DNA of 64,000 bases, from contig CP158635.1 of the NCBI GenBank assembly GCA_050273025.1, positions 7,254,001 through 7,318,000 on the forward strand, given 5' to 3'. Every line of letters begins with the position of its first letter. Position 1 is the stretch's first letter. A program made the translations under genes and the position numbers. The notes beneath the pieces are model-generated. The model saw only the letters and a list, made by a program, of their open reading frames with translations, did no database searches and was not told the origin of the DNA. Source of the DNA: Cenococcum geophilum. Lineage: Eukaryota. Below are positions 32,064 to 64,000 of this stretch, piece after piece.

Positions 32064-34206
32064 AATAAGTAACAATATTAACTAAATTAATTAGATAGAT
32101 ATTATACCTCTAGTAAACGACTTAGAGATATTTTAAATCTTTAAGGACGAAGATAAAAAGGAGGGAGATAGTGTTACGGACGCTTTAAGTACAATATTAT
32201 AACTACTAGGAGAGGAGTCGGAAGAAGCTAGTTGGTTAATTTAGGCACGGTCTAGGATGGAGCTAATAGAGCTATATAACAAGGAATGGTAACTAAGGTT
32301 ATATAGGGTGATCTATATAATCTGTAGGATCTATATAATCCGTAATAGAGTAAATAGAGTATACGTATATTACGTATAAGAAGGATTTCATAGGAGTACG
32401 GTTATGTATTTAAGGACCCTTAGTCCCTACCTAGATAGTTCCTTCCTTATAGTGATTCTTAGAATATAATTGGAGTTAATTTATTGGGCAACCACTCCAC
32501 TAGTTATTATTACGTTGTTGACTTTTGTACTTGCATTTCCTATACACCTAGCCCATTAACGAGCCTACCGTAGTTCTTGCTACAAGGTTCCGTTACACTT
32601 ATACTTATTTAGAATTCTAACCTTAATATAGGAAGCCGTGTTATATAAAATATATACTATTAAAAGAGGGTTTTTTTTTAGCTAATTCGGTAGATATGGT
32701 ATATAAACTGTTCCTATTTGCTAAAGGATAAATTAAGCTCTATAAGTATAATAAAGTATACCTTATTAAGGGTAATACCCTCTATAATAGCCTTTAGAGA
32801 TAATAAAAGAATCTATAGTCTAGTTAGCTGCTTCTATAAATTATAGATAATATAATTCTTTTACTTTAGTAATGTTCCTCTAGGGAGATATATAATAGTG
32901 TCCTCGCTATATTTAGCAACCAAGGCCTAAAATAAGTATTAGCTTAGAGTTCCCGTTAAGCAAGCTGCTGTTAAGAGGTAAAAAAAATAGAGTGTTTTAT
33001 TACTTATTGCTATATATACCGCCCTAATAGTTAGGAAATTAGTACTAATAATAACCTTACTATAATACCCCCTAATGTTTTTTTAATTATATAGCTTCTT
33101 TATAGATAACTAAAAGCGCCTTAAACTTTGCGTTGCCGTAAAGAATTTCCTCCTTATTCTTATCTAAGATGCTTCTAATAGGAGATTTAATTAATTTTAC
33201 GTGAAATTTCGCTTATATATTAATTTTGTCGTTATTTAGCAGATCCTTATTATATCTATCCTTCTATAAAAGTAACCTAGGCGTTATCGCTGTAACATAG
33301 CACGTAAAGTAGGTGCCTAAGGAGGTACCGGCCATTTGTACTAGTTAGTTCCCCTTAAAAGAACTATCTTCTTTCTATTTAACCATTTTCTACTAAAATA
33401 CCTCTTCTATTTCTAACGCTATTGCACTTTTTATACCCTATAGCAATTTAATTTCTATAGTTCTATACTTATAGTTTAGGTAGTAAGTTTAGAGCTCGCC
33501 TAAAATAACTTTTAATTTTTTTCCATTAAAGCCGATGGTATTTAAGGTACGGCGAATTTTAAAGTTTATAAGTATTTCTCTACCGACCTAAACTAATTCT
33601 TTATATGCCGTAGACTGTAAAACCCCTTTAGGGTTGCTCTTTCCTTATTTTAAAAAATGACTTTATAGCTTTACTATTTTTTTTTTAACTTTAACAGACG
33701 TGTATTTTTTAAGAATGCTATTATCTTAGGCGCTTGCCTAATCTAGATCCGAAAGGCCACTTATAATAAACCAATATATATCTATAACACTATTCTCTAT
33801 TAGAGTCCCTAATATAGCCTAAATAAAGAATCTAAGGCGTTTTGGTATAGTACTTTTATAGTAATAAAGAAATTAGTTAACTATAGTCTCTTTATTCTTC
33901 TTATTATAAAACTTATCCTATAAAACTCTACTAAAAAATGTGGTCTTAACCGACTGCTAACCTTTATCCTCTCGCTTACCATTAGATAAGAAGCGGTAGA
34001 CACTTCTAGTAATTATAAAGTTATTAATAATACGCTATTTTAGGTATTTAGATATTATAATTATAATAAATCTTATTACTAGGGCAGCCGGGGTACTAAT
34101 TAAAGGATTGCCCTTTTTAAGTAGTAGGACACTGTTAGAGAACTATAGGTAAGGGGTTTTTGCTTTATCTGTAAGAACCTAATAAATATTTAAAGCATTA
34201 TAGGTA

Positions 34207-34640
34207 ACGTACACCATAAGCGAGCGGCCCACCCAAGCGAGCGGCCCACCTCAAAACTCGCCAAAAAATGGCAAAATCGCACCTTAGTATCTCAACAACC
34301 ACTTAATAATAAATTCTAATAATTTAGATTTAGACTTTTATATATACTCTATAGCTTCTATTAAAGTTACATAGTAGCTAGCTTTGTAGTTTTTAAGATA
34401 TTAAATTTTGGGGGCCAAAATAAGGCCAAATTGGGTTAAATTGCTATATCTTAAAAACCACTAAGCTAGCTACTATGCAACTTTAATAGGAGCTATAGAG
34501 TATATATAAAAGTCTAAATCCAAATTATTAGAATTTATTATTAAGTGGTTGTTAAGATGCTAAGGTGCGATTTTGCTATTTTTTGGTGAGTTTTGAGGTG
34601 GGCCGCTCGCTTGGGTGGGCCGCTCGCTTATGGTATACGT
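34207..34640. mobile_element. Fot1/pogo-type MITE, 434 bp, ~195-bp TIRs, TA TSD
   Basis: TA+ACGTACACCATAAGCGAGCGGCCCAC... and ...GTGGGCCGCTCGCTTATGGTATACGT+TA. Nearly the whole element is a palindrome. Confidence 0.95.
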
Positions 34641-37199
34641 TAGTCTAGTTTCCTAATATTTTTATTTCTAGCTACTTATTTAAAGTTGGCTGCTCTATGC
34701 CCGGAGAAATATCTACTGTTAAATAGTATATTATAACTCTTAGCGGTGCCTACGCTTACGTTATAAGTGGTAAGTCTTTAAACAATAAGATATAATTATC
34801 TCTTTAAGCAGTAATAATATGCGGAACTGCGATAACTAGGCTGGCACTATATTATTTACGCATTATAAATATAGCGTTGCGATTTACGCGTAAGTACGGT
34901 AGAGGTATTTTATCCTAGCTAGGATACTTAGCGTTAATATCCTAGTGGCCCTTCGGTAAATATTAACTAGTATTTCTAGACGCTTAATTAGTAGCTACTT
35001 TGTCTAGGTTTATAGCATAATAGTAATTTAAGATAATAGTTAAGTATGCGGTTACTATTTTGCCGGTCCCTATACCGTCTATAAAAACCCTACTATTTAG
35101 CTTTATGCGTTTCTAGTAGAATATCTTAAATATACTATATAGCTAGTATAAGAACGCCCTAAACTTTAGATTTAGACCCTATCTATAGGGAATAGGGACT
35201 ATATTATTCCCTAGGAGGGCCCCCTTAAAAACCCCCTATAGCTTAGCTAAGCGTTTATACATCTACTACTCTATTCTCTTAACCTTACCGCCTACTTTTA
35301 CTATAGCGGCTTTTCAAAATATAAAAAAAGCTAATATTAGTCTAATTTAAGATGTACTCTATATACTTATATACCTATACCTTTGCTTAATATAATTGGC
35401 AGCCTTTGCCTCCCTATTGGCTTTGTTTATTATATCTTTAAGGGCCTCTTCTTTTAGGTTATTGTCTTTTATAGAAACCTGTATAATATTACTAGCTAGA
35501 TCGTCTATAGTTATAACCTATAATTAAGCTGGTTTAAGATCTAGAGCGGTTGCGCTTTAGAGAGCATTATAATTATCTTTATTCTCCTTTATACTATTAG
35601 GACCCCCTATAGGCTAGATAGCTAGACCGCCGCGGCTGTCCTTAGTAGTTTACTATAATTTGCCTTTAAATGCTCTAGCAGGTTGCTCCCTTTTATAACT
35701 ACGTTTCTTTTAACCTAATAAACTTAGAATACTGCTGTACACTAATAAGGTTAATAAAGCATCGCTCTTACTTTTAGTGTCTTTATTAATAAACTTATTA
35801 TCTAAGTACTCTAAGTGCTTGCGGGTCTGCTTAGACGCAGTCTTTTACTATTTCTTATATATGGGCTTGCCGCGCAAAAACTGGCGAACTGGGGTATTGG
35901 TAATGCTGGGAGGGTTTATACTTTACTTGCGCGGTATTTAGTACGGTGTTTTTATAATTGGATACTTAGCTGCAATTATTAGTATATAGATAGCTAGATA
36001 TTATTAAAAGAACTTATAATTAGTACTCTTAAGTATAAATTCCACTTTACTTCTATAGTATAGCATATATCGCTAGAATGCGGCTTATAATACCCCTTGC
36101 TAGGTAATATAAGCCTTTTTATAGGATTTAACGTCGACCTATGCAATTTAATCTTTGTCTGAGTTAAACCCTACTAATATTATAACCTCTTAAAATAGCA
36201 AGAAACTAATATCTTTAATTATTAGAGTTTCTATATTGGCTTTTATAATATTATAGATCGTATAAAGCTCTATAGTGTTTTAGGTAGTTAAGTTTATTCT
36301 TTAAAATTAAAAGGTTATATTTTTAAGTAAAAGCGGCTTACCTAATAATGTAGGGCCTAGTAATTCTAAGATTTGCTTAGGAGCAAATATAGGCGCTAGC
36401 GTTATTATAGGTTTAAATTTAGTTTAAGTCTAACTTCTAAGTTTTAACTTATTTTGCTATTTTATAGTATTAGTTCTCTAAGATATTATTAAAGTAATAA
36501 TAGTATCTTTGGACTAGCTCTCTAAAATATCTTTCCTTTTAGGCAAGTTACTAAGAACCTTCTAAATAAAGTTATTGCGTAGTACTTTATCTCTAGCGGT
36601 ACGAAACGCGACTTTATTAAGCCTGGCCTTTACTATACTATTTAAGATTATCTTCTTAATTTCCTTAAGGCGACGAGCATTAATTTTCCATCTATTTATA
36701 ATATCTAAGTCCTTTATAGTAATGCGTAAAGATACCGAAATAGAATAAAGGAGAAGTAGAGCGTTGCTATATAAGAGCGGAAGAATCTAGTTAGTGTTTA
36801 GTAAAGGTGCAAGCCTAAAGTAGGTAGGTAAGACAAACTAATTATAAAAATTAATTAACTGGGCAGATTGCTATAGTTTTAGGGTGTAAGTTATAGCTTA
36901 AAGCTGTAATTAGCGGTTAAACGAATTAATTAATTAATTAATGTCGCGTAGAGGTGCCGTGCAAGAGTTAGTTAAGGTAGTAGAGGTAAAGAGTTAGGCG
37001 AAGTAGATATTAAAGTTAAGTATTTCCGCAGTAACGCTAGTAGGTAAATTGCCGCCATTTAATGCTTATTAATAGTAAGGTAAATTAAGAAGTTCTAGTA
37101 AATATATAGAATGCTAAGTCTAGCGGCATTTTATAGTAGATTACCTTAGGTAGTATAAGTCTTATATAGTTATAATCTTTAGGATTTAAGAACTAAACT

Positions 37200-38200: not shown

Positions 38201-39489
38201 TTAAAAATAGGTTGAGGGCTAGTATATAGTTAAGTTAAGGGGAAATTAGTTTTAATGTAGAGAATAGGTAATAGATAGATAGATAGTATTTAGTAGTAAG
38301 ATTTAAGAGGGAAGCTTATCCTTATTAATATTAAGAACGCGTATAAAGCGGATAGGTAGTAGTAATTTAGGGGAAGACTTTAATAGAGGATTTTCCTATA
38401 TAATCGGCAGCTGCTTAATAGAGGAAGGGTAGAAACCTATAGCTATAATATTATATATTATAACTTTTTACCTAACTTCCTCAAATATATATATATAGGT
38501 AGTGGCCTTCTATAGCATTTTATCGGCATTATAAGTTAATGCGTTTTAGTAAGGCTTGCTAATAAAATTACGCTAGCTAGGGTGCCCATAGTATGCTAAC
38601 TTAGGTAGGAGCGCCTAAAGCGCCTAATATAAAAAGTCTTTTTTACTAGATAAAGGGATATGGGGCTTAAAGCTCCTTACTGTTCGGTTATAAATCGCCT
38701 CTATATTATAACTGTTTAATCTATACGCCTTTTAATATTACCCGTTTTATAATTAGTGGCGGCTACTACTACGGCTTATATAAATCTGTAATTAAGTTAA
38801 TTGTTTAGTAAGGCTTTAGAATAAGGCTCTAGATTTGACTTCGCATATTAATGTGTAATTAACATTAGTAAGCGATTTAAAAGAGCCCCTCTTTACCACT
38901 AGGCCTCTACCGCGACTCCCTACTTTAGTATAGTAATAGAGCCTCCTCCTCGACTAACGTCCTCTCTATAATCGGCGTTTCCTATATCTTTACCTACCTT
39001 TTGTATAAACCCCCCAGAAATAAGCTTATCGCGATTAGGGTATGTGGAGTTGCCATATTATAAGATGTCGTCACTTTAGCACGTATATAAGAGCTTTAGA
39101 TTAAAATAGAATATAGAATGGGAGCTTAAAGCTATATATTAAAATGGTGCTAAAAACCTTATTTTAACTACTATAATCTAGAACGAGCCGTGTACTAGTA
39201 TAAAGAGAATAGCAGTAAAATAAGCGGGTGTTTTAGATTTTATGGTTAATATGCCCCTTAATAAATACCGAGTTAATAGCAAAGCTCTAGGAGTTACTAA
39301 TTGGCCTTATATTAAGCACGGAATCACTAGTAATCTATTCTTCCTTAGTTATATTTTAAATTAGGTATAGATTTAAAGCTTTAAAAGCTATATTAACTTT
39401 ATATTTACTTAGCTCTACTAATTAAATGGTTAGATCTAAAGTCTATATTAATTATAACTCTAGCTAGGAGCTCTAATCTAATAAGATTA

Positions 39490-40390
39490 CTGCCTTAAAG
39501 AGCAAACTAGCGGACTTCTATTACTAAGCGCGAAATTGCTATATATTGCCTAGTATATCGCCTAGTTCCTTAAGCGGCAAGCTAGCGGACTTCCATTACT
39601 AAGCGCGAAATTGCTGTATATTGCCTAGCATATTACCTAGTTCCTTAAGCGGTAAGCCAGCAGACTTCTATTACTAAGCACGAAGTTGCCGTATATTGCT
39701 AGGCATATTACCTAATTCTTTAAATTATAAGCTAGTAAGCGTCGCCTATTAGCAGAGTATTCTAATATATTAGCTTGTATATTGCCTGGTTCCTATATTA
39801 TAAGCTAGTAAACTTATTAATAGAGCACTACGATACATCGCCTGGCGTATTACTTAGGTCCTTAAATAGCAAACTAGTAGTTGTTACTTATTAATAGAGT
39901 ACTATAATATATCTAATTATATGTTACCTAGTTCTTATATTATAAGCTAGTAGCTCCTCTTATAAGTAGAGTATTCTAAATATTAGCTTATATATTGCCT
40001 AGTTCCCGCGTCATAAGCTAGCGGCTTCTTTTATTAATAGAGTACTGCGATATATTACTTACGCATTGCCCAGTTCCTTAAATAGTAAGATAGTATACTT
40101 TTCTTATTAATAAAAGAATTGCAGTATATTGCCGATATATTGCCTAGTTCCACAAAAAATAACTTAGTATATGCCTTCTATTAGCCGTAAGACTACGGCA
40201 TATTCCTAAGTATATTGCTTAATTCTATAAAAAAAAAATTTAGCATTTGTCTTTTACTAACCTTAAGACTGTGGAATACTGCTTACTATATTACCTAATT
40301 CTAAAAATAATAGTTTGTTATACTTCTTCCACTAAAGAAGAATTTAGGGCAAACTACCTAGTATATTGCCTAATTCCGCGCTAAAAGGAT
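39490..40390. repeat. 75-bp tandem array, copy 2
   Basis: Same unit as 16700-17590; anchors at 39534 and 39609. Confidence 0.92.
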
Positions 40391-40427
40391 TAAAAACACA
40401 TCGCTACTATAATCTATAACATTTGTA

Positions 40428-43400
40428 TTAGCTACTTCTTTAAAATTTTTGGCTTATTTATATCTACGTCCAGTCTCTTATTAGTGGCGTTCTTCTTAAA
40501 CTTAAGCTTATTTAGAATTCTACTTTTAATACGGAAAGCCGTTAATAGTAACACCCTCTATAATAGCCTTTAGAAATAATAAGAGAATTTACGGTCCGTT
40601 AGCTGCTTTTATGAGTTATAGATTATATAGTCCTTTTACTTTAGTAGTATTTCTCTAGGGAGGCATATGACGGCATCCTTACTATATTTAGCAACTAAGG
40701 CCTAAAATAAGTATTAGCTTAGAGTTCCAGTTAAGCATATTGCTATTAAGAGGTAAAAAGATAGAGGGTTTTGCTACTTACTGCTATATATACCGCCCTA
40801 ATAATTAAAAAATTAGTACTAATAATAAATTTGCTATAATAGCCTTTAATATATAATACTGCTATAACTTCTTTATAGATAGCTAAAGCGTCTTAAACTT
40901 TGCGTTGCTATAAAGAATTTCCTTATTTTAATCCAAGATACTTCTAATAGGATTTTTAACTACGTTGGCGTGGTATTAAACTAGACGTTTATTTTTTTTA
41001 TTGTCTGGAAGATCCTTATTAAATTTATCCTTTTATAAAAGTAACCTAGACGTCGTTGCTGTATTACGGCACGTAAAGTAGCTGCTTAAGGAGCCGCTGG
41101 CTATTTATACTAGTTTTTCCCCAGTAGGAGAACTATCTTCTCTCCACTTAACTATTTTCTGCTAGAGTGCCTCTTCTATTTTTAATACTATTGCACTTTC
41201 TATACTGTATAGGAATTTAAGTTCTTTAGTTTTATAATTATACTTTATATATTAAATTTGGACCTTATCTAGGATAGCTTTTAGTTTTTAGTTATTAAAG
41301 CTAATAGTATCCCAGTTGCGGTAAATAAGAAAATTTATAAAAATTAGGCTACTAACCTTAACTAATTTTTTATATATCGCAGACTATAAGGCACTTTTGG
41401 GGTTGCTCCTTCCCTACTGTCATAGTGCTGCAATAAAGTAGACTAAATAACTACGTTATGGTATAAAGAGGGGAAGAAGGTAGAAAGGGGGTATTGTATA
41501 TAAATAGTAGGGCCGGCCGCCAAGTCGCTAGTGGTGGGCTAGCTAATAGTAGGAAATAGTACGAGATAGTATAAAACAGTATGTATTAGGTTAGTGCCGT
41601 AACAGTACTTCTCTCCCCTAGATAGTTTAGTTCCTAAACTAAATAAATAACTTAAAAATAGGCAGTATACGGGGTTGCCTATTTTTTACCGCAAAGATAT
41701 TAGTTCTGCTTACCGCCCTTAACTAAGTTAATAGCGATTTTCTATACCGGGCATAGAAAATCCTAATTAGTTAGTTTAGTGAGTAAGGTCGGTAGAACTC
41801 TACACTACTACCTAAATCGATCTATATGGCGTTTCTTAGCGAGAATTTAGCTAATTAGATAACTTTAACCGCTAGTTAAAGTTCTATAACATCTTAACCA
41901 CCACAAATTTTAATACGGTGGTTGGCCGCGACCTTAGTATAACTTTTCCTTATCTTATACCCAGTCTGGGGGTCCTAGCTTTTTAGGGCGTTGCTTATAA
42001 AAGCGCTATATAGCTTATTTATAACCCTTTAGGTTTTCCTCTAGCTGCCAGGTTGTATCCTTATAATATTTCTATTTAATCTTATAAGTTAGGCCCTAGG
42101 GGTCTTTATTATATATATTAAGGATTTTCTTAAACTCCCATTTGTCTTTTATATTGCCGTTATTATCTCTCTCTGCTACTCATTCTTGTATATTACGGCG
42201 CTCTGCAGTATTAATATTTGCTTAGCTAGGGATCTCTTTAGTAGCCTAAAGGCGGACCTTAGATATATAAAAGGATTTATTTACTTAGATATAGTCCGAG
42301 AGGTCTACTATAATTGCCCCTTAGTATACTGCAAGTACGGGGTATAGGCCGTCCTATTTATTGTCCTATTTCTTTTTAGGTCTATTTATCTTTATATTTT
42401 CTAAGCTAACTATAACTATATCGCCTTTATAGAATAACGCGCTCTTATCCCTATAGGTATTAGTATTATCTTTATAGCGTTACTGTAAAATCCAGGCTAG
42501 GGCTTTAAGCTATATTAATATCCGCTTAAAGCGGTTGGCTATAGATTCTATATAGAAGAACTCCTTCTTTACTTATACTAATAGTATTAGTAGGTAGGAG
42601 CTAGTAGGCTTAATTTTAAGGCGAGGGTTAAAGCCATAGTTTGTAAAAAATAGGGAGATACCTATACTCTTATTAACTTAGTTATTTATAGTAAACTTAG
42701 TAAGTAGTAGGTAGTTAACCTAGTCGTCCTATATAAAGCTAACAAAAGCATAGAGGTATTTATTTATGGCAGCGTTAATAATTTTAGTTTAGCCGTCCGT
42801 TTTTAGGTACTAAGCTAAGCTTAGTCGCAAGATTGTCTTAAGGCGTTTACTTAGTTGTTGCTAGAAGTTACTAATAAATTATATACCGTAATTGGAGATA
42901 ATTATGCTTAGTGCACTGTGGAGCTTATATACGTTATTAATAAAGCTATTAACTAGCTCCTCTATTAAGAGTCCTATTATTAGAATAAGGTGTTATATTT
43001 TAGTTAAGCGGTCTATAATAATAAGGATATATTTATATACCTTACCATAGCGTTAGTATATTGGCAGCGTTATAATATAGTTAATTAAGATATTAGTCTA
43101 TAGGCAAGCGGGTAATTCTAGTAGCTTTAAAAAACCAAGTGGGGTAAAACGGGGGGTCTTAGTGCGAAAGTATAGGGCACAGTCTTTAACAAAGGTAGCC
43201 GTAAACTAGGAGATTTTTAGCCACCAGTATATTTGGTTTAAGAGGTTAAGAGTCTTAACCTAGCTAGGGTAATTAGCGGGGCCGCTACTATAAGAGCGAT
43301 AGGTAACTTCTAGGCGGAGGTCTAGGGCGTTAGGGATAAAGAGATATTGGCGGAAGTAGATCTATTTATTAATAATACTATATTCTAACTTATTATAACA

Positions 43401-46400
43401 GAGTAATTTCCTAATCTTCTTTAGCTAATAGCGAGCTTTCTAATTACGTAGGGCTATTATTATATCTCTTGTGAGTTTGTTCTTCTAGTATCTTAGCTAA
43501 ATTAACTTGTCTAGTAACTTTTTAGCTATTTTAGGGTCTAAAGCGGCTATAAACTCCGCGTTATTAGAGTTACGGGACTTATATAGTAATTCTTCTAAGA
43601 TTATAAGGTTAACTTTTTAGGGCGGTATAATAACTTGGGCTTAGTAGCGGAGGCATTTATTATTGGTGTCCTTAGGCCTTATTCCTAGTAGCCAGCTTAG
43701 GGCGTTAAGGAGTATAGCTTTACTACTAGGTCTATATATAATTACAAAGTTAAACTATAAAAGGAACTCTGCCTACTAGACTTAGCGCTAGTTTAGCTGC
43801 TTAGTAGTTATAAACATCTATAGGTTCTTATAGTTGGTAATAATTTTAAACAGCTCCTTAGTCCCTTATAGCTTAGGACGCTATTCCTCTAAAGCCTTAA
43901 TAATACCTAAGAGTTCTTTATTATAGATCTTATAGTTATACTCTAGCGTAAAGTGCTTTATGGAGAAGAATATAACCAGTCTTAATTTTCCGTTATTATT
44001 ATACTGGGAAAGGACTCCGCTAGAAGCCTAATTTAATACATCTATCTTTACTACTGTTTTCTTTATATAGTTATAGTATGCTAGTACTAGTACTAAAGTA
44101 AAGGCTCCCTTAAGGGCCTTAAACGATTTAGCTTATTCTAGTCCCTATAGCCATCCAATATCCTTCTTTAAGAGTTTTGTTATAGGTAGAGCAATAGTAA
44201 AGTAGCCTTAAATAAATTGTTAGTAGAAGTTCGCGAAGCTAAGAAATTATTATAGTTCTTTAATTAATGTCGGGTTCTTTTATTCCTATAAGGCCTGTAC
44301 CTTCTTAGGGTCTATAGTTATACTATTAGTCGAGATAATTAAGCTAAGGTATTTTATTTTAGTAGAGTAGAACTTAAACTTATTAATATTAATCTAAAGT
44401 CTAGCATTACTAAGTCTTTAGATGATTTTATTTATATACTTAGTATACTTAACGCGTATTTTAGAAAAAACAAGGACGTTATTAAGGTAGGCAGTGCAGT
44501 AGTTATTAAGGGCGTTATATGGAATATAGTTAATATAGTTTTAAAATATAGCGGGTGCGTTATAGAGGCCAAATAGTATAACTAGTATCTTATAGAGTCC
44601 GAACCGGGTAATAAATACTATAAGCTATTTATAGCCCTCCGCAATCCAAATCCGGTTAAACGCAGTAATTATATTAAGTTTAGTAAAGTACTTAGCACTA
44701 TAAAGTGCGTCAAGTATCTCGCGGATTAGTAACAGTGGGTATTAATTCTTAATAGTGACTATATTTAGGCCTTGGTAGTCGTGGCAGATTTATATACTAC
44801 CACTAGGCTTAGCAGTAAGGAAAAGTAGTGCGGTAGCTAGTGAAGTCGATTTACGGATAAAACCCTTATCTAGCATCTTATTAATCCACTTCTTTACACA
44901 CCTAAGTTTAATAGGTAAGAGTAGTCTATTTTTATAGTACGGGGCCTAGTTTCTGGGGGTAATTTTAATTTTATAGTCCTATAGTTAGTAAAGGGGCAAC
45001 TTATCTATATTTTTAGGGAGGAAGTACTTAATATATTTACTAAACTCCTTTAGTAGGCGTTATAGAATGTCTTTGCGGGTTAATCCTAGTTTACCTTTTA
45101 GGAATTTTTTAATATTAGTATTAACTATCTTCTAACGTAAAAGCTTAGGTTTAGTTTTTAGATTTATTTTAAGGAAGTTATAAAAATAGGGGGGGAGCAC
45201 TTTACGGGCTTCCTTTATCGTATAGTCGCCTTTTACTAGCCAGCGGAAAGACCTTTCTAATAGGTTTAGTACTTCTATTAGGCCTATAGGCAGCTCTTTA
45301 AGTAGCTATTAGTACTTATCTTATTTAATTAGTTCTACTAGCTCCGCTATATAGATCTTTATTACCTTTACATTTTTTTATTTATAGAACTAGGTAAAAT
45401 TAATAGCATAAGTGTATTTAATATTATCTAGGTTAGGGCGTATCTAGTTCTTCGGTGCTATAGCTAGGCTAGCACAGCTTAGTTAGCCTAGGGGGGCGGA
45501 AATGAGGCGGCGGCCCTATATAGTACGCGCGGGAGACAGGTATAAGGTTAGGCGTTATAGTAGCGCGGTTTCTATTATCTGGGTCTTAGTAGTTCTATAG
45601 CCAGTCCTTGCTATAACGCGAGCTATAGTGTGCGTATATAGCATATAGCTTAGTTCTAGGTATTAGGCTAGGCAGCTAGGGTTTAAATAGTGCCTAGGTT
45701 AGGGTTAGATTCTTAGTAGTAGTAGTATAAAGCAGACTTTCTTCCTTAGTCTTAGTAGGGCTAGCTAGCCCGTCGTTTTAGTCTTAAGTGCTAGGGTGGT
45801 CTAGTCTTCTACTATCTCGTTTCTTTATAGCTATACAGGCTCCCCTTTATTAGGAATGTCTTCTACTATTAAGGCTTTATATATAGTCCTAGGCACTAGG
45901 CTTAGTAGTGCTAAGTATCTATATAGGATGTCCCTACTAACGTTGGTTATCCCCTATAAGAGGTAGTGCCTAAAGTAGTAGTCTAAGTTAAAGCAGATCT
46001 TAAGTTTCCTAAAGCTAGGACGGGGCTTATGCTTCTAAAGCTAGGGCATACCTAAGATAATTAGGGTAGTGGGCAAGAGTTTAGTAATAAAAAAGAGTAT
46101 GGCTTTAGTATAGAGGCCGATTAATATTTAGGCGGTAAAGTAGTCCGTAATAAGCGAAGTTAGGATACCGTCTATAAGGCGCAGTAGCCTAGGTGCTAGC
46201 AGCTTCTTAATTATAACGTTATACTTTCTTATAATAGACTCTACGTTGGTAAATGCTATTGTAGTACTACTAGAGTCTACTAGGCTTACTATATTAATAT
46301 AAACTTAGGGGTATAAATTACGTAATAAGGAGAGTTGGGTTTAAATAAGGATTAATTTCTTATTACTATTTGCTAATTTAAGATTAAGTAGTAGTTTACT

Positions 46401-49400
46401 AATAGAAAGGACTGATTAATCTAGTAATAGGGACCCAATCTTCTCGTCTTCCTCCTTATATGGTTTAGACCCTTAGATATAACTTAGTTTAAGGGTTTAC
46501 CTTTTAATAACTAGGGTACAGGGCTGTCTTAGTAGGGTGGTCTAGTGTCTATCTAGCTAGCGGTATCGGTCTCAGTTTTGGTTAGGGTATAGGAAGATAA
46601 TACCTTGCTAACGACGTAGCCGTATTCGTATTCGCTAGCATAAAGTTGCTAATACTAGGCGTTGTTAACGGGTTAGGCTTCTATATAGGGCATAGTTTAG
46701 AATAACTAAGCTATAGGGTTAAAGGGGGGGGGTTGTCCACCGCGGTTATAATAGGCTCTATGGTTGCCGCGTCTATAATAGACTCTACGGTTACCGCGTC
46801 CGCGGTTATTAGTTTGCGTTATTTAATAGGGTGGCATTAGGACTAGGTTTACTATCTTAGTAAGGTTATAAGCATCCTTTTAGTAGCTAGGTAGGCTATA
46901 GGTAAAGTATAGTCTATTATTAACGCGGCGCTTACGCTCCGTATCTAAGATTCTATTAAGGTTTATAGGTTCTCTAGTTACTACTAGGGTTAGGGTTAAT
47001 ATAGGGGTAGGGGCTTAGGTAGGTAGGCGGTGGTTAGCGTTCTTCTTAAGGTTGGCTTAGTGTGCATAGTTCGCAAGGTTTTTAGTAAATATATCTATCT
47101 ACTTACTCTAACCTATATAGTCGCTATTATTAATTTTATAGGTAAGTCTAAGTACCAGCTCTTCCATCTTTAGAGAGATAAACTTTTAGAGTAGGTCCAC
47201 CTTTTATTTATCTATCTTCTTAGCGCAGACTATTAGCTTATTAAGCTCTCCCTTTCAGGACTAGTAATTACACTCGCCCTAGGGGAAATAGTTAAGCTTA
47301 TTCTTTGCGACCTGGGTTATATTAAGGACCTTATAGTAGGTAGTAAAGTCTTTAAGTATATCTTCCTTAGTAGGCCATTTCTACGTAGATGTGTTATTTG
47401 GGTTCTTATATATAAGCTTTAAGCCCTACTTAATAAACTTATAGGCCTTATTTTTTAGTATATCTAAGATATAAAGGATCTGGGACTAAACTATATTAAA
47501 GTAGTCCTAGTCCCAGTTGAAGACTCCCTTAATCTTAATATACTAGATTTTAAAATTAGCTTATTATTCTAGCGGGGTACCTTTTCCGCTAAATATTAGC
47601 GGGTCTTTAAATCTCCGTTTTCTTTACTAGGTTACTACTATTATTATAGGGGTTAATTATTTTAAAACGGTAATAGTCTTTACCTAGGAGTTAATAGTTC
47701 CTATTTAGGAAGCGATAAGGGCACTAAGGTTTTTGTTAGCTTTTTTATTAGTGGTGTTTATGTTATATATATACTATAGTCCTACTTTAATATTGCTAAG
47801 GAACTCGTTGGTATAGTTAATAAGGGTAAGGTAAACTTTACTAGGCTTAAAGGTCTTAGGGTATAGTAGGGAGCGGCGGATTATCTACGCGATATTAGGG
47901 TATGTCTTTATAAAGAGGTCTACAAAAACATCGCGGGGGTTCTAAGTTTCGGCCATTTCGGCGTCGTTAGTGTTGCCTATTTAGGCGCTAGGTAAAAACT
48001 AAGGATTATTCTAGGACTATACTAGGGATGTATTGGTTTTAGTAGGGGCGCGTATAGGTCGCAATTGCTCTAGGGTAGAGGTTAATTGGCTAGGGTATAG
48101 GGAATTAGTAATCGCGATAGGGCGTAAATTAAAGATACTATAAACTGTCACAGTGCTATAATAAAGTAGACTAAATAACTACGTTGTGGTATAAAGAGGG
48201 GAAGAAGGTGGAAAGGGGGTATTATATATAAATAGTAGGGCCGGCCGCCAAGTCGCTAGTGGTGGGCTAGCTAACAGTAGGAAATAGTACGAGACAGTAT
48301 GAAACAGTATGCGTTAGGTCAGTGCCATAACACCTACTTTAAAAATTGGGTCTATAGTTTAGCTATTTTATTAACTTCCGTAGATGTATATTTTCTAAAA
48401 ATACTAGGGCTAGCTTAAGCGGTTACTTAATCTATATCTTTAAGGGCGCTTATAATAAACCAGCACATATCTATAACACTATTCTTTATTACTATACTAA
48501 AAATAGCCTAGGTAAAGAATCTTAGGTATAGCGGTACTACTTTTTTTAAAAAATAAAGGAATTAGTTAATATAAGTTTCTTAATTTTTTTATTATAAAAC
48601 TCATCCTATAAGATTCTGCTAAAGAGCGTAGTTATAACGGTCTATGTACCTCTATAGCGGGCTATTAAAGAACTATAAGTAGGGCGTTTTCTTTTTACCT
48701 ATAAGAGTCCGACTATTATCTACCGTATTATAATCTAACTAGTCCCTTAAAGTCCCTATTTAAAGGCATTCCTAAAGGTTTAGTTACGCCATTCCTTTAA
48801 ATATACCTTCTATCTTATAGTATATTGCAAACTATAGTAGCGTCTGCTCTTTTATTATAAGCGTAAAGTCCTTAAATAATAAGATGTAATTGTCTAGTAA
48901 TTACACTTGGAATTATAATAACTAGATTTGCACTATACTGTCTTTATATTATAGATATAGCGTTTTAATTTATATATAAGTATAGAAAAGGTATCTTATT
49001 TTGGCTAGAACACTTAGCGTCTTTAGCCTAGTTATCCTTTTATAAATACTAATTTGTATTTCTAGCCGCTTAATTAGCAGCTACTTTATTTAGGTTTATA
49101 GTATAGCGGTAACTAAGGATAATAGTCAAGTACGCGATTACAGTTTTTTTAATTCCTATACTATTAGCAAAAACACTACTATTTAGTTATATGCGCTCCT
49201 AGTAAAACATCTTAAATACGCTATATAGCTAGTATAAAACGCCCTAAACTTTAGATTTAGACCCTATTTGCTTAGAATAGCGACTGTGTTATTTATTAAG
49301 ACGGCCTTTTTAGGAACTCTATATAGCTTAGCTAAAGGTTTATACATCTACTACGTCATTTAATAACCCCTACCTCCTGCTTTGGCTATAGCCGCCTTTT

Positions 49401-50807
49401 AAAATCTAAAAAGAGCTAATGTTAGTCTAATTTAAGATGTACTCTATATAACTATATACTTATACCTTTACGTAATAGGCGTTATAGCCTATATCTCCTT
49501 AGCTTAGGTTATATTATCCTTAAGCGCACCCTTATAAGGTATCTTAGATTGTATTAGTTTTTATAATTTTATTAAAGAAAGCTTTTATAGATATAGAGTT
49601 TAATTATTATATAGGGTCTAAGCTAATTAGGGATATAAAGCAGTTTTGCTCTAAGGAGTATTGCGATTATCCTTGCCGTGCTTTATATCGTTGGGATTAT
49701 CCGTAGGCTAAATAACTAGATTATTACGGCTGTTTTTAGCAGCTTGCTGTAGTTTGCTGTAGTTTACCTATAAATGCCTCTAGTAGGTTACTCCCTTTTA
49801 TAATTATATTTCTTTAGACTTAATAAATTTAAAATGCCGCTATATGTTAATAAGATAGATAAAGCATCTCTTATTCTCTTTGTCTTTATTAATAAACTTA
49901 ATATCTAAGTGCTTGCGGATCGGCTTAGGCGTAATCTTTTACCGTTTCTTAAGTGCGGCCTTAGTGTGTAAATACTGGTAGTTAGAGTATTGGCAATACT
50001 AGGAGGGTTTATACCCTACTTATTTAGTAATTAGTATAGTACTTTTATAATTAAATGCTTGGCTATAATTATTGGTATATAGATAGCTAGATGTTATTAA
50101 AGGGACTTATAAACCGTACTCTTAAGTAGAAATTCTACTTTACTCCTATTATATAGTATATACTACTAAAACACAGCTTATAATGGCCCTCGCTAGGTAA
50201 TATAAACCTCCTTATTAGTAACCACGTTAAGCTAGGTAATTTTATCCTTATCTAAGATAAAACCTACTAATACTACAACCTCTGGAAATAGCGAGAAACT
50301 AATTTCTTTAACTATTAGAGTTTCTGTATTACCTTTTAAATTTTATAGACTATATAAGGCTCTATAGTGCTTTAAGTAATTAGGTTTATTCTTTAAAACT
50401 AAAAGGTTATATTTTCTAGTATAAACGACTTATTTAGTAATATAAAACTATATAATTCGGAGACTGGCTTAGGAGTAAATATATATACTAGCGTTATTAT
50501 AGATTTAAATTAGGTTTAACTCTAACTTCTAAGTTTTAACTTTATATTATTTTGCCGTTTAGTGGTATTAGTTCTTTAGGATAATATAAAAGGAATAATA
50601 GCCTATCTAAACTAGATGTTTAAAGTACGTTCCTTCTTAGGTTAGTCGCTAAGAACCTTCTAAATAAACTAATTACTTTATCTTTAGTAGTATAAAACGT
50701 AGATTTTTTAAGCCTGGCCTCTTATATATTATCTAAGATTGTTTCTTAATTTCCTTAAGGCGATAAGTATTAATATCCTATCCCTTCCAGATATTTAGGT
50801 TATTTAT
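40428..50807 (-). pseudogene. SNF2-family helicase, paralog 2; interrupted by Gypsy 41418-48332; lacks the motif VI segment
   Basis: Collinear with paralog 1: (GG)VFA(DGM)GI(G)KTV at ~49140-49180, RIL.DEF(H) at ~48600, same intron positions, shared upstream region to ~51080. Confidence 0.85.
41418..48332 (-). mobile_element. Full-length Gypsy family B, copy 2; LTRs 41418-41604 and 48146-48332; TSD CCTAC
   Basis: Reverse complement of 24090-31005. TSD at 41413-41417 and 48333-48337. Confidence 0.97.
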
Positions 50808-51749
50808 TATAATGCGTAAAGATACTAGGACGGAATAAAGGAGTAGAGCGTTGCTGTATAAAAGTAAAAGAATTTAGTTAGTGTTTAGTAAAGGCGTAAG
50901 TCTAAAGTAGGTAGGTGAGATAAACTAATTATAAGGGTTAATCTACTAGGCAGATTGCCGTGGTTTTTGGGGGTAAGTTGTAGCTTAAAGTAGTAATTGG
51001 CAGTTAAACTAATTAATTAACTAATTAATATCCCGTAGAGGTGCCGTGCGAGAGTTAGTTAAGGTAGTAGAGGTAAAGAGTATAAAGTAAAGTGAATCAG
51101 CCTAAGGTAAATACTCTCGCAGTAATAATAGCTAAATAGTTTTTGCATTTATATACTTATTATAACTACTTAAATAGGAAAAGGCTAACCGGAATAGTTG
51201 GCGTTAAGTAGTAAGGTTAAGGTAAAGCTAGTTTATACTAATGGAATATAACGCGCGCGCGTTAAAGGGCAATTTACTATAGCAGATTACTGCTAAATAC
51301 GCTTCCTCTAGTTATAGAAAATATTCTTTATAAATAACTAGTATAATAGGCGGAGTTAGAAGTACCTAAGAATGAAGGCTAATACCCTTAGGACGTTTTG
51401 CCTGCCTAGGATCGATATTTTAGCTTAATTAAGGCCGCTTTAATATACCCTTTTAAGTAGGGCTCCTAGTAAATAATTAAGACTCTAAATAGTATTAAAT
51501 TTAAAGCTATAAGGACTGCTACTATATACCACGTATATTTATAACTATAAAAACAATTATATCCTTAAAGGCTTTAAGCGTTTATTATATTGTATACTTT
51601 AAAAGTCCCATATTCTAAACTAGCATAATTATTAGTATATCTGCCTATAACTCCTCTATCTCTAGGTTAACTCTTACATCCTAGATAATATTAAAAAATT
51701 TAGGGAAATCTAAAAGACTTATCTACCCTTCCGCTAAGTTAGTTTGAAG

Positions 51750-58743: not shown

Positions 58744-61700
58744 TATTAGTTACACAAGGTAATATTACGTAGCTACGGTTCGTAGATAGTATAATAATTA
58801 TTATTCTTCTTAATATCCTTAAAGAAAGGGGTAAGGAACTTAAGGTTCCTTACCACGCTAGTGCCGCGGCGGCACGTAACGGTAACTTGCCGCATATAAC
58901 GGCAATATACCTTATATGCCTTTATTCCCAACACTGGCAACTCTTTTTTTATAGTTGCTATCTATATATATATAGACCGCTTAACTAGCGGAATAAAAAT
59001 TAATTCTCCTTACTTACTATTGCCATTGTAATATAAGTCTCGCTGTCTTAAAATTTGCCTCTTAGCACGTAATGCTTTCTTAATTATAAGTTGTGGGTAG
59101 GTATCTTATTGGTAGGGCCGCTAAGGCGCTAGCGGTAAGCGAACTAATAGCGATTTTCCATCTTAGGGATAGAAAATCCTAATTAGCTGGTTTAAGTCAG
59201 GGTCTGTAGAATATAACTAATTAGACAACTTTAACCGCCGGTCAAAGTTCCTGGACATCTTAAGACCTTACGTAACTAAGAAATTTCTAGGGACTCCCTT
59301 TTAACCTAACCTTTAACTCATATATATAGAGTATTTATATTAATAAGCGTCTCTAGTGCCTTGTTTAGGTTCGCCTTTATTATTATATTTACTAGGTTAT
59401 CTTAGCCATTAATCTATTAAATTTTAAAGAGTTCTTAACGCTTATAGGATTGCTAAAGTGCCATAATATCGATTATAAGGCGCTTCTCCTTTATAGTACT
59501 AAGCTTAACTAAACACTTATAGAGGGAATATAAGTTAGTGTATATAATTATAGGGATAATAGGAAGTTTGAGTCAATCTATAATTATCTTTAGGGTAGTT
59601 CCAATTGTAATTGCTATATTAACTCTGCTAACCATTCTATATATCTCTAACGCTAGAACGCTTTAAGTAACGCGCTTACTCTTAGTTAAGCTCTAATAGA
59701 TAAGATTGCTATAGATTATAAAGTTATTCTCTCTAGTAGATTTATTCGCGATAATAATTTTATATTTTAGCTAGGAGCTAAAGTCTTTATTATTTATAAA
59801 TAATCTATTAACAAATATAAAGAGCTTAGCGGTAGGAAGATTAATAGGCACGTAGAGTAGTCCCTAATTAAGATAGTTTATTTACTAGGAAAGACGCTTA
59901 TTTAGGGTAAGAATATCTTCCTTAGTTAGTTCCTGGTGTTAAGCGGCAACTAAGAGATTAAAGGAAGCCTCGGGTTAATAGATAAAAGCAATATAAGCTC
60001 CGCAAGCGCGTTACTCCATATATTCTTACTTTAGAGAATTAACATTAATAATATTAATTTTCTTGCCTTAACCCTTCTAGCGTAAAGCAATGGTTCCCGT
60101 AGTTATAATAAAAAAGTATAGATTAAATATAAATATAGTTATTAAAAGTTTCTCTTTGTGGTGCTTACTATAGGTGGCCCACTAATAAGTTTCTGCCTCT
60201 GCAATTCTATATAACGGCTTAAGTATAACCATAATTATATCTTCGGGATATTAGTGGCGAATTTACTCTAAAAGGTATGCTAATATTAAGCGCTAAAGGT
60301 ATATTTTTAATTGGGTATAGGCCTAAGTAATATCTCGCAAATAGACCGCTATTCCATTCTTTATTAAGGAGGGAGCTAGCGCAATAATAACTCGCTAACT
60401 AGCTCGTTAAATTATGGGAGATTATATAAGAATTACCTCCTTACCATTGTCGTTATAGCCTTGGATAATAAGCCTTAATTTCTTAAATAGGGCGTTAGTA
60501 GCTTTGCCCTTAATCTCGTTAACTATTCTTAACTTAAAGATGCGAACTCTATTGAACTTAATAGGGTTATACTTCTTAAATTTAAAGACTCCTTTTGCAA
60601 TAAGACCGTTAATCTCCTGCTTGTCGGATACTTAGAAAGGAGCTCCTAGGGTTATAATATAACCTTCCTTTTAGAGCTATTTTACGAGCTTAAAGTTAGC
60701 CTTCTCTTTGGCTATTATAAAGGCTATTAATAACTTAACTCCATTCTTAATAGCAGCAATAAATTGTTCTTTAAAATTAATAAGATATTAGCAATTTTGT
60801 AATCCCTTTAGGCGACCTCTACCGCGTTACGGTTATAGCGCATCTACTACAATTATATTGGGATCGTAATCGCCTTCTAGAGTATATTAATTATAGTTCT
60901 CTTCTAGGGCATCTTCTAGGGCATCCTATAAAGGCTCAGAATTATTATCTTTATAATAAGGCTTAATAATAGTTAAATAGAATTAAGTGGGTCTGTAAGG
61001 CATCTAAATAGTATAAGTTTAACTATTAATTATAATAAGTTAGTATAGGCCTAACCATCTTCCCTTTTTATGCTATACGCGTACTTTAGACTGGAGTGGC
61101 AGATTAAGCGTAGTTAAGGTATTTGGGCCATTTCTTATTCCTAGTGCGTTATTAACCTAGTATATAGCGTAGAGACGTTACACCTCCTTTATTGCCTTAT
61201 AAATAGCCTTAGCTTATTACACGATAGAGGGAGATAGTAGAGAATTATTAGTTATTTAAGGGTAGGCGCTAAAGACTAGTAATATAAGTATAAGTCTATC
61301 CGGGCCAGCAGAATTGTTAATAGCTTTAACAGCTATTTATAAGGTAAGTTCTTTGCTAGTATCCTTTAGTTCTAAAGAAATAATCTTATATACGCGGCGT
61401 AATGGCGCGTAATATTACTCTACTTTTTTAATACTATTATATGCCTTAATGGGGACTTCCTTAACCTTAATTGCTATTGCCTTTATCTGCTATCGGAACT
61501 CTATAGATAAGAAGTTCTTTCCTATATTATAGATAATTTAATTAGGGGGTCCTAAATAGATATTAATCTAGTATAACTAAAGGGTATCCTATACGTTTCT
61601 GGCTAATATATCTTTTAAGAAACGCGCGGCTTAGAAGAAGGTTAAGAAGTTAATAACTTAGAGTACTAGCTTGCCGCTAAGATATATAACATTAATAATA

Positions 61701-64000
61701 ATATAGAAGTTAAAGTTATAGTTATTTTTAAGGGTAAACTTAAATCGGCTAGGGGACTTCTGGTTTATTTAGTAGTAATAGTAGTACTTTATAAGATGCT
61801 TAATTGCCTTAATCTTAACTTTATAGCCTACTTGCTAAAGAACCCTAAGCAATTAATAAACGGATGGGTGGCCAAAACGACGGTATAGTTGGCGTAATTC
61901 TAACTTAGTTAAGTAGCTCTAAGCAACACTCTTTTCTAGTTAATAAAGGAGCAACTAGGGGTAACCCTACTTGTGTATAACGGGCACCCGATTATCTCCC
62001 TAAATAAGTATATTCTTAAGGTTATTAAGCCTAACGCCTAATTTATTTATATTTATAATATAAAATAAAAACGGAGTGTTTATAGGGATAATATAGAAAG
62101 TGATATATCCTAAGGGGGTTTAGACCCTAATTATGCTAAAAGAGATTATAGTACCCTTACCAAAACAAATCGTGTGTTGGCCTACTGTTAAATAGTTAAT
62201 CTAAATAGAGCTATTAAGCTACTAAAGGGCTTAAACTTAAGGTTCTCCTACTATAGATACTCCTGCGGCTCTAGTATCCGGCATAATACTATAGAAGACG
62301 TTCGCTAAGTATCTGTCGTTAAAGGAAAACGCGGAGCTCTCCTTTAGCTTATTAAAGATATCTAACTTCGTAATAGAATGGAGCGTAGATTAGTCATTAA
62401 GAACAGCAACGGTTTATATACTATTTACCTCACCATACTCAGTAAAGTATTAGTTAGGTAAGTAGTCCTTAATTTCTATATCTATAAGGAGCTGTTTAAC
62501 CTTATTAACCTTACCCTTAAGATCTTCTACGCCTTCGTATTAAACTAAAAAGCTTTAAAAGTAGGCCGCAGTAACCTTATAATTTCTAACATTTCTTATA
62601 CTCTAACGGAACCTATTATATGCCTTTTTTTGTTTATTAAGGGAGTATCTAGTTAACTAGCAATTTAGCTTCTTATAAACGTAGCACTTCTTTTAGTAAT
62701 TACTTTAAAATAAACCTCTACGAGGACCTCTATAATTACCTTATAGTTAATATTAATCGTACCCTCTTCTGTATTCCCTACTACGGCCACTATATATTTG
62801 ATTAGTCTAGTTATAATTATATTAGTCAGGAATACTTAGTTAGGTAGGGTTTTCGGTATAAAACTATTAAGATTCTTATATTCGTATTATAGTACCTATA
62901 GTAGAGCGTAGCTTAGCATATACTCCTTTAAACGTATCCGCAGGTTTATATAGCGCTAAGTTATACTTAGGAACGCCACAGTATGCTAAGATAACCTAGT
63001 CCCTTAGGCTGTTCTTATTTTAGTAAGTTTTGGTAAAGCCATATTAGATTTTCTAGAGTTTATTAAAGAGTAGTTAAAGGTACTCTAAATAAGTCTTTAT
63101 TAGGTTAAAAGCAATAACTCTTTAGAACGTAGTTTCCCGCCATTCGGATATATAAAGTTGGCGATTCTTATTAGTCTTAAAGTGAGCTTTAGTAAGCTAA
63201 AGCATTACATTAAAGCTATAGTTTTTACCTATAATATAGTTGTAATAGAATATTGCTACCCATCCCTTTAATATAATAGAGAAAGTGTGGTGGTACTAGT
63301 AGTATTAAATTCTAACCTTATTGCAACAGTTATAAAAGACCTATAGTTTTACTCTAAGTATATTATACAGTTCTCCTCTAAACTTCTTTTCTTCGTCTAA
63401 GTATACCTTTATTAGATTCGTAACTTCTTATAGTAAAGGGTTACCGGTTAGCTGGAGTAGAAAAGCTAGAGGCAGCGGTAGAGGATAAGTACCTCTAGGT
63501 GGGAGAGTAGCGTTCTAGGGGTTTTGTTTTAAATTAAAGTTGCCTTTTAAAGAATATGGGTTAGTTCTAAGTTTCCGTAGTTAACGTATAATCTTAGCTT
63601 CTATCTATACTGGTTCTTCTATACTAATAATAACGGCCTAAATATTGCTAGCGATTGGGTTACTATTCTTAGTAATATATACCCCGTTCCTACGGAGGAA
63701 GTCTTAAAAATCCTAAACAATATTAATATTGCTAAGTGCCCAGGTGTTAGCGGTCCATCCTATAAAATCCTCCCTAAAATATTCCCATAGCTGTATATTG
63801 GCGTAGTATCTACTTTAGTAGAATATAATACGGTGTAGGAGAAAGCTATTAACTTATTTTGCGGTATAAGTTATTATATTAAAGGTAAATTCGTCCTAAT
63901 TTTCATTAATAAGTTTCGCGTATAAAGCTACCCCTAGTAGTAAGGAGTCTTCCCAGTCGTTTAAAGTAGGTGTAGCTATATTTTTAGAGGGAGGGAAGTG
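58744..64000 (-). mobile_element. Ty1/Copia retrotransposon (fungal GalEa-like); 3' LTR 58744-58933; runs beyond the window
   Basis: AAAAGAGTTGCCAG precedes TGTTGGG. Integrase LRQL(H)RRFGHPSV at ~61870 lies upstream of RT (RVRIF..; ..RL..Q.YND at ~60450-60560) and RNase H, which is the Copia domain order. Confidence 0.93.

Follow-up and report, generated by a model that had tools for sequence, protein, structure and literature searches.

Short hairpin cassettes after pol are shared by Copia and Gypsy retrotransposons in a 64-kb stretch of Cenococcum geophilum

We analyzed a stretch of 64,000 nucleotides of the fungus Cenococcum geophilum (assembly GCA_050273025.1, contig CP158635.1, positions 7,254,001 to 7,318,000 of the forward strand; hereafter the window, with position 1 as its first base), in which a Copia element and both copies of a Gypsy element, Gypsy B, carry a common non-coding motif. 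The Copia contains protease, integrase, reverse transcriptase (RT) and RNase H in Copia order, in a frame that ends at ~59290, and Gypsy B contains RVT_1, RNase H and integrase in Gypsy order (Pfam), with a chromodomain-like pol tail that ends at ~30487; the Copia frames gave no Pfam match because of heavy damage by repeat-induced point mutation (RIP). A stretch of ~120 nt after pol of the RIP-mutated Copia (minus strand, 59144-59263) matches a stretch of ~170 nt after pol in both Gypsy B copies (blastn E ~6e-12). The initial annotation had described a motif common to these elements, on the sense strand soon after pol, and both the sequence and its position are as it described them.

Searching the window with the motif by blastn, we found two cross-matching blocks, block A (56 nt, 82-84% identity, E 5.9e-12 and 7e-11) and block B (59-70 nt, 78-80%, E 2e-11 to 3.7e-8), and nothing beyond the Copia and the two Gypsy B copies. 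The same three copies were recovered by a profile search (nhmmer) and by a covariance model run with filters off (scores in Table 1), the next match of the model being at 17 bits (E 0.098). Folding energies are -38.4 kcal/mol for the Copia stretch (z -3.7, equaled by 0 of 200 shuffles) and -51.8 kcal/mol for the Gypsy stretch (z -2.75, equaled by 1 of 200), and every reading frame of the motif is closed. Two hairpins are alike in the copies, as had been annotated, and the spacer between them does differ, being longer in Gypsy B than in the Copia (30 nt); the supposed difference in a second loop is really at the top of a stem, where, besides RIP transitions, a single base pair has changed in a compensatory way (C:G in the Copia and G:C in Gypsy B). 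We refer to the two hairpin-bearing parts as cassettes A and B.

The position of the pol ends and of the long terminal repeats (LTRs) places the motif inside both elements, between pol and the polypurine tract (PPT). In Gypsy B, the module starts ~40 nt past pol and ends ~120 nt before the PPT and 3′ LTR; in the Copia, it follows pol and lies ~205 nt upstream of the 3′ LTR, with a purine run at ~58945 directly upstream of that LTR. The cassettes are thus integral to the internal pol-PPT interval of these elements and are outside the LTRs.

Table 1. Retrotransposons of the window and the parts of the shared motif, in window coordinates (bits: covariance model, filters off)
Feature	Position	Strand	Details
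Copia (GalEa-like) gag-pol, RIP-degraded	59264-64000	-	5′ end beyond window edge; frame with integrase before RT
Copia 3′ LTR	58745-58936	-	TGTTGGG ... AACTAATA (RIP form of ACCAACA); read-depth step at ~58744
Cassette A in Copia	59217-59263	-	23-nt hairpin at 59227-59249; 5′ tail TTAAGATGTCCAGG, 3′ tail GTCTAATTAG; sequence and blastn
Spacer in Copia = left flank of type I B unit (TTATATTCTACAGACCCTGACTTAAACCAG)	59187-59216, 30 nt	-	Contains ATTCT junction motif; alignments
Cassette B core in Copia, 43-nt hairpin	59144-59186	-	Inner palindrome 59152-59178; 68.7 bits
Right flank of type I B unit (TTCGCTTACCGCTAGCGCCTTAGCGGCC)	59116-59143	-	Kept across lineages; transversion diversity 0.029
Gypsy B copy 1	24090-31005	+	LTRs 24090-24276 (187 nt) and ~30816-31005; nested in Gypsy A; self-comparison
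Cassette A in Gypsy B copy 1	30526-30572	+	Sequence, blastn, alignment
Gypsy-specific spacer	30573-30652	+	Own small hairpin CGCCAC..GTGGCG and left flank of type II B unit (GGTGGCGGTGTAGAGTTCTGCC...)
Cassette B core in Gypsy B copy 1	30653-30695	+	G:C allele at stem pair 11; 75.2 bits
Right flank of type II B unit (CTTGGTTAAGGGCGGTAAGCGGAACTAATATCTTTGCGGTAG)	30696-30740	+	Sequence, alignments
Gypsy B copy 2	41416-48332	-	Self-comparison
A-spacer-B module in Gypsy B copy 2	41730-41897	-	B ~41730-41772, A ~41851-41897; 69.2 bits
Gypsy A	17696-32595		LTRs 17696-18122 and 32169-32595, 91.6% alike; hosts Gypsy B copy 1

The Copia that hosts the motif appears, from its translated motifs and its ends, to fit the fungal GalEa clade. 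The markers of this clade given in the consulted part of PMC5445492 are an integrase located before RT, the RT motif KSRLVI and the RNase H motif ADxxTK. In the window Copia, an integrase zinc-finger region precedes ..KKLRLIIQGY.. and ..DNLVNIIIKAN.., both of them RIP-damaged forms of such motifs, and its LTR begins with TGTTGGG, with the LTRs of its relatives ending in ..ACCAACA (matches at 12 loci).

Both hairpins are palindromes. Hairpin A is an 11+1+11 palindrome of 23 nt, found with the same tails in 54 oriented copies from 50 sources. Hairpin B has an inner part that is a 13+1+13 palindrome and an outer 5-bp stem, CTAAT/ATTAG (CCAAT/ATTGG before RIP), around a conserved 3x3 internal loop. 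Both self-complementary apices, ..ATCCCCGGGAT.. or ..ATGCCCGGCAT.. in B (containing CCCGGG or CCGG) and ..ACCG[G/C]CGGT.. in A (containing CCGG), are of the kind found in dimer initiation sites (DIS). In the whole unit, no multi-domain fold proved robust beyond hairpin B and small neighboring hairpins, and its sense strand folds about as well as its antisense strand (both with mononucleotide shuffles, n = 30).

Sought in metagenome contigs with a RIP-tolerant pattern, hairpin B was found in at least 130 copies at at least 127 loci (individual loci carry L numbers below). Root and soil metagenomes match the window stretch itself, as do runs under two organism labels. Using the translated pol of the window elements as queries, we found pol beside 74 of the 130 listed B copies, 47 of them Copia and 27 Gypsy. 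At least three Copia lineages carry B: one with 67-82% amino acid identity to the window Copia, one with 38-44% (L033, L039, L051, L076) and one with ~41% (L014, L048), in which the whole B block is inverted relative to pol. The Gypsy lineages number at least four in all, among them the Gypsy B lineage (52-78%), a lineage of ~30% identity (L001, L062), in which ~100 nt separate the end of pol from cassette A and the cassettes are followed by a PPT and a TGTTACGG-type LTR, and a lineage of ~33% (L026, L027, L028, L050, L056, L069), where B is inverted and the order pol, A(+), B(-) occurs in at least six copies. The pol proteins of the cassette-bearing lineages are 30-40% identical or not alignable. 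In addition, small LTR-flanked derivatives with no recognizable pol (L017, L072, L010) retain the module.

Comparison of these copies demonstrated that A and B are separable cassettes which occur in differing combinations, orders and orientations. The initial annotation had taken them for one two-hairpin element, a claim that we do not uphold, with A found upstream of B in only 25 of the 130 listed copies; in other families, A is on the other side and inverted. Among relatives of the window Copia with a pol match, 35 have an upstream region without A and 9 belong to the cluster that holds it, and the difference between the two states is a replacement, ~78 nt standing in place of 11 nt, with the right junction in a shared ATTCT. 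A is thus absent from most relatives of this Copia, absence from most copies of a family being what the initial annotation had set against its own claim. A third cassette, C, is a conserved block of ~75 nt (TTCTCCTTAGCTTAGTATTCTTATATAGTAGCAAT...TATACGAGCC) that usually lies 0-300 nt 3′ of B and is present at 33 loci (including L034, L102, L017, L062, L001, L072 and L033); in 29 of 34 locus-B pairs it has the same orientation as B and is no more than 300 nt downstream, and part of it is inverted in the window Copia (AGTAAGTAAGGAGAA). B is often preceded by arrays of TTCTGCC-containing repeats of 9-23 nt.

The sequences around hairpin B show how far the shared unit extends. There are two flank types: type I, represented by 76 copies in the main downstream cluster, and type II, with flanks like those in Gypsy B, into which the contigs that share only 59144-59186 with the window Copia run on. 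Compared across types, the sequences are homologous only over the hairpin and a short margin (5-20 nt to the left, 0-10 nt to the right); inside one type, homology extends ~50 nt to the left and ~45 nt to the right. Ignoring transitions, the type I unit (~110 nt) of the window Copia is 88-95% identical to that in eight other contexts, including the Gypsy elements L001 and L062; for type II, 5 of 6 comparisons give 89-93%. Neither profile search nor covariance model turned up intermediate, diverged copies in ~0.5 Mb. Since the unit is nearly identical in elements whose pol is very distant, we argue for exchange between lineages. That the superfamilies share the cassettes by exchange, rather than by chance or common descent, is well supported and bears out what the initial annotation had suggested on the three window copies: at least three Copia and at least four Gypsy lineages have hairpin B after pol. 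We consider it likely that the cassettes are both integral parts of their hosts and exchanged by recombination.

Two further arrangements of B are recorded here as observations. At 39271-39307 (minus strand), a marginal match keeps the cassette B outer frame (CCAATTAG ... GCTATTAACTCGG) but has 16 other bases in place of the 27-nt hairpin core; it is followed by a type II flank of the TAAGGGGC type, adjoins a tandem-repeat array and is the sole variant of this kind found in ~0.5 Mb. At L070, two B copies stand in tandem, ~75 nt apart, after a ~23-nt tandem repeat (AARTTCCACYGCAACTGTCCACC). The motif GTGCTAGAGCGCGYCACCTGC stands ahead of the TTCTGCC repeats in several families.

A different origin of the same pattern would be a small non-autonomous DNA element, i.e., a miniature inverted-repeat transposable element (MITE) or foldback element, that was repeatedly inserted between pol and the PPT, as the one tolerant site of these retrotransposons, and then copied with its hosts. 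MITEs and foldback elements are likewise short, hairpin-forming, multi-copy and found in either orientation, and the cassettes have discrete, sharp hairpin boundaries, arms that are inverted repeats, both orientations relative to pol, presence/absence variation within one Copia lineage (with joints that skip 78-89 nt) and, at 39271-39307, an outer-frame copy with a different core. The initial annotation had itself allowed for an independent insertion with its own target-site duplication (TSD); the presence/absence variation is there, but alignments inspected by eye, with no formal TSD scan, showed no TSD at the A or B junctions, and the difference at A is a replacement (11 versus 78 nt), not a clean insertion. 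No stand-alone copy outside a retrotransposon-like context was recognized among the 130 listed copies (eight long loci being ambiguous and many flanks short), nor was a known transposase terminal motif found, and we know of no transposase partner. A 45-nt insertion would also leave the larger flank units that are shared along with the hairpin, and the further cassettes, unexplained. We regard such a mobile DNA element as an unlikely source, and continue with exchange by recombination between integral parts of the retrotransposons.

Template switching by RT between co-packaged RNAs could carry the cassettes across lineages, with the hairpins and the short ATTCTGCC-like repeats as putative crossover points. 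The 3′ untranslated regions of plant LTR retrotransposons are hypervariable, contain tandem repeats and recombine between elements by template switching; Sabot and Schulman are said to have described such inter-element recombination in 2007. The plant cases resemble ours in the interval involved (pol to PPT), in the short tandem repeats and in mosaic evolution through RT template switching, but they concern related families, whereas the unit seen here is almost identical between superfamilies.

Such a process needs no function for the cassettes. Hairpins and short repeats would make RT pause and switch, and the 3′ region would become a homogenized mosaic that serves no purpose, which would account for the mosaic architecture with tandem ATTCTGCC-type repeats and for crossover limits at hairpin edges. 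Stem pair 11 of B is of the C:G type in 79, of the G:C type in 49 and ambiguous in 2 of the 130 listed copies, with no unpaired transversion intermediate among them; the B sequence free of RIP was seen exactly four times with the C:G allele and once with the G:C allele (among at least 130 copies). At the center of hairpin A, 28 of 54 copies have G, 25 have C and 1 has A, and this base varies inside 5 of 6 multi-copy flank clusters. That both stem-pair-11 alleles and both common hairpin A centers occur inside the same host lineages also fits the neutral reading. A "flip-flop" inversion of hairpin A was considered and is suggestive, but an old polymorphism shuffled by exchange explains the centers equally well, and we do not use it as evidence.

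Against a purely neutral by-product is the conservation of the B unit. In 33 copies of one Copia family, the unit flanks, which lie outside the search pattern, have transversion diversities of 0.062 and 0.029, compared with 0.07-0.15 in pol and 0.16-0.33 further downstream in the same copies; within one family, the B unit is at least as conserved as pol, and its flanks are more conserved than neighboring non-coding sequence. Deletion derivatives keep the module, and the palindromes remain perfect, although palindromes are unstable during reverse transcription; moreover, a neutral mosaic would still require heterologous co-packaging. We therefore put the neutral by-product well below an even chance, as an unlikely reading on the whole, and judge the claim that the cassettes are a functional cis element to be evenly balanced.

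If the cassettes function as cis elements, the hairpins may act as orientation-independent RNA-RNA pairing sites. Because they are perfectly palindromic through the apex, either orientation offers an identical stem and self-complementary apex. Speaking for paired stems, 92.3% of cells are paired in an alignment of 33 sequences, a level that none of 500 shuffles attains, two pairs differ on both sides, and stem pair 11 of B has no unpaired transversion intermediate. Two cassette RNAs could then form an intermolecular duplex, i.e., a dimer-linkage site, and common cassettes would allow unlike elements to pair, be co-packaged and recombine, with the cassettes spreading in turn. Retroviral dimer hairpins, such as the HIV-1 DIS, have a GC-rich self-complementary apex and promote both the pairing of two genomic RNAs and template switching. 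The HIV-1 DIS, however, is located in the 5′ leader and has a 9-nt loop with a 6-nt palindrome; the cassette stems are paired almost to the apex, and their pairing role is predicted. Our best reading places A and B among a number of short, quasi-palindromic hairpin cassettes in the pol-PPT interval of many Copia (GalEa) and Gypsy (chromovirus) lineages of this RIP-active fungus. That these cassettes are at once integral, exchanged by recombination and functional as hairpin cis elements is a possibility that we place somewhat short of even; dimer linkage as their specific role is tentative and rather doubtful. The most far-reaching version, in which the palindromic hairpins would be a "docking" sequence that pairs Copia and Gypsy genomic RNAs for co-packaging and recombination, so that the 3′ non-coding region would be a pool of modules shared within one genome, is a speculation we think unlikely to be correct.

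Several observations weigh against a functional pairing element and must be set beside it. Of the 130 listed B copies, 56 have no nearby pol match, mostly at loci with flanks of only 300 nt, and 8 of the 29 loci without pol that are at least 2.5 kb long have no similarity to pol-bearing elements or their relatives, as judged by six-frame tblastn against the pol-bearing elements, a comparison in which DNA-level and protein-level likeness are mixed. Not every element has the cassettes: Gypsy A, in the same window, has neither A nor B by profile search and covariance model at the thresholds used. Covariation, proposed as a check in the initial annotation, is minimal, with a compensatory transversion at one stem pair only, and says little, because the stems otherwise hardly vary. 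The conservation of B positions 0-35 is an ascertainment effect, as these positions are fixed by the search pattern, and the near-identity of the units could reflect recent spread and not constraint. Perfect palindromes can also arise through template-switch "correction" of quasi-palindromes, with no function. The occurrence of the B unit in both orientations relative to pol counts against a strand-specific RNA motif. For pairing in particular, only 1-5 nt remain as a loop once the apices are paired; a classical kissing loop would need more, so that only an extended-duplex dimer would fit, and known retroviral and Ty dimer sites are near the 5′ end and not the 3′ end. Function, pairing role and the co-packaging of Copia and Gypsy RNAs are all, for these elements, what we infer from sequence. 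In addition, the strandedness of the RNA library used below is presumed from its pol reads.

Palindromy through the center and freedom of orientation would equally suit double-stranded DNA sites for a dimeric protein of the host or the element, acting as an enhancer, an insulator or a CCAAT-box complex. Hairpin B before RIP does end in CCAAT ... ATTGG, and the CCG-N-CGG core of hairpin A resembles transcriptional cis motifs of Sirevirus elements (PMC2829016, in the part consulted). The latter palindromic motifs (Bousios et al. 2010, PMC2829016) are a looser analogue of the cassettes, with dyad symmetry, a CGG/CCG core and conservation in Copia non-coding regions, but they are located within the LTR, upstream of the TATA box, and close to env, they belong to one plant genus-level lineage and are read as transcriptional elements, and the portion of that article consulted reports no sharing across superfamilies. 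The cassettes, moreover, come downstream of the coding sequence and are not part of the LTR promoter, and the conserved asymmetric 3x3 internal loop of hairpin B would be unexpected in a symmetric dimer site. A DNA-level role is thus improbable in our view, and we retain the putative RNA-level cis element.

We also compared the motif with known RNA families and with described retrotransposon hairpins. At the gathering score, Rfam gave no match in the whole window; at E ≤ 1, it gave none in 58900-59400 and, in 30400-30850, only a 13-bit hit to IRES_Pesti (gathering score 180), which is a chance match. A known RNA family or ribozyme is rejected on this ground, and the catalytic role that the initial annotation had offered among its options finds no support. 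Literature searches, including terms in PMC12910237, returned no account of such shared 3′ cassettes in the portions of the articles covered. The nearest described thing is the Conserved Hairpin Site (CHS) carried by GalEa Copia elements of fungi, including its "extended CHS". According to the consulted part of PMC5445492 (2017), these elements have no tRNA primer-binding site (PBS) and carry, directly after the 5′ LTR, a 9-mer, CHSeq1 (CTGATCAGT/CTAATTAGT); CHSeq1 and CHSeq2, 9-mers with a conserved A/A mismatch, define the CHS. Like the cassettes, the CHS is a conserved hairpin of small size that occupies non-coding sequence in elements of this kind, with a palindromic 9-mer resembling CTGATCAGT/CTAATTAGT; a 33-62 bp extended CHS is common to different families of one species, and the authors also raise the DIS analogy (PMC5445492). 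Unlike the cassettes, which are after pol and upstream of the PPT, occur also in Gypsy and have both orientations, the CHS takes the PBS position after the 5′ LTR (same source), and the sequences free of RIP differ. By position, after pol and ~205 nt upstream of the 3′ LTR, the motif is ruled out as a CHS, and it is ruled out by the 9-mer too, since CTAATTAGT is only a RIP form, the least-mutated A tail being CTGATTGG and the left tail of B CCAATCAG. A Helitron 3′ end (hairpin and CTAG-like tail), an Mcm1-type CCTAATTAGG box and identity with the CHS had been considered, and were dropped because all three likenesses rest on TAATTA strings made by RIP, the sequences before RIP being CCAATCAG and CTGATTGG.

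The 3′ cassettes might still act in priming or strand transfer by pairing with the CHS that replaces the PBS. Relatives of the window Copia bear CTGATTAGT or CTAATCAGT directly 3′ of the 5′ LTR, matching CHSeq1 as given in the consulted part of PMC5445492 (at the related loci L017 and L005, the window Copia's own 5′ LTR being beyond base 64000), and the RIP form CTAATTAGT also ends cassette A. The tail of A before RIP, however, is CTGATTGG, not CTGATCAG (L121), so that its likeness to the CHS is largely made by RIP; duplexes between the 5′ leader and the 3′ module do not outperform shuffled sequences in energy (z -0.5 to -1.6; 14-63 of 200 shuffles were as good), and Gypsy elements also carry the cassettes. 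A role in CHS-dependent priming is accordingly very improbable.

The Copia family is extremely repetitive in the contigs. Read depth, which is not copy number, is of the same order over the motif as over pol and the LTR and falls ~100-fold outside the element, at the step at ~58744. In RNA run X21, 53 reads were placed on the stretch and none at ≥95% identity, so that the RIP-mutated Copia copy of the window is not detectably expressed in this one run. A relative of cassette B free of RIP is transcribed: 27-31 reads of X21 cover 59146-59184, with 17-20 distinct starts. This transcribed variant has flanks matching the L090/L118 type and one extra substitution, which is a G.U wobble on the transcribed strand if pol reads are sense. 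The X21 reads over Copia pol come from another relative free of RIP and have the opposite first-mate strand.

Other repeats were observed in the window. Two related tandem-repeat arrays with a period of ~75 nt (16695-17697 and 39493-40504, 67-83% alike) abut element starts, namely the Gypsy A 5′ LTR at 17696 and a repeat beginning at 40542. The latter belongs to a further repeat in two copies, 32766-36994 versus 40542-41416 plus 48335-51081; the second copy is interrupted by Gypsy B copy 2, and the first copy therefore shows the empty site, at ~33646. A stretch of 441 nt at 34205-34642 is 89% like its own reverse complement, i.e., a large palindrome. Outside the window, L013 contains, at its far end when read on the minus strand, an open frame which, named by eye from its translation, we take to resemble an E1-like (Atg7-type) activating enzyme; this frame is within ~2 kb of a small cassette-bearing element, so at least some copies adjoin host genes.

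LTR retrotransposon families are usually treated as independent lineages, with recombination known chiefly among close relatives. In the present case, elements whose polymerases are 30-40% identical or that belong to different superfamilies carry an almost identical non-coding unit, and so do small non-autonomous derivatives. If the docking reading is true, the cassettes would be a retroelement counterpart of the tail shared by long and short interspersed nuclear elements (LINEs and SINEs), working through RNA-RNA pairing. The cassettes offer a handle on cross-family RNA co-packaging and recombination, on the cis sequences that are needed besides LTR, PBS and PPT, and on the build-up of the very large repeat load in such fungi; even as neutral passengers, they would mark template-switch junctions precisely.

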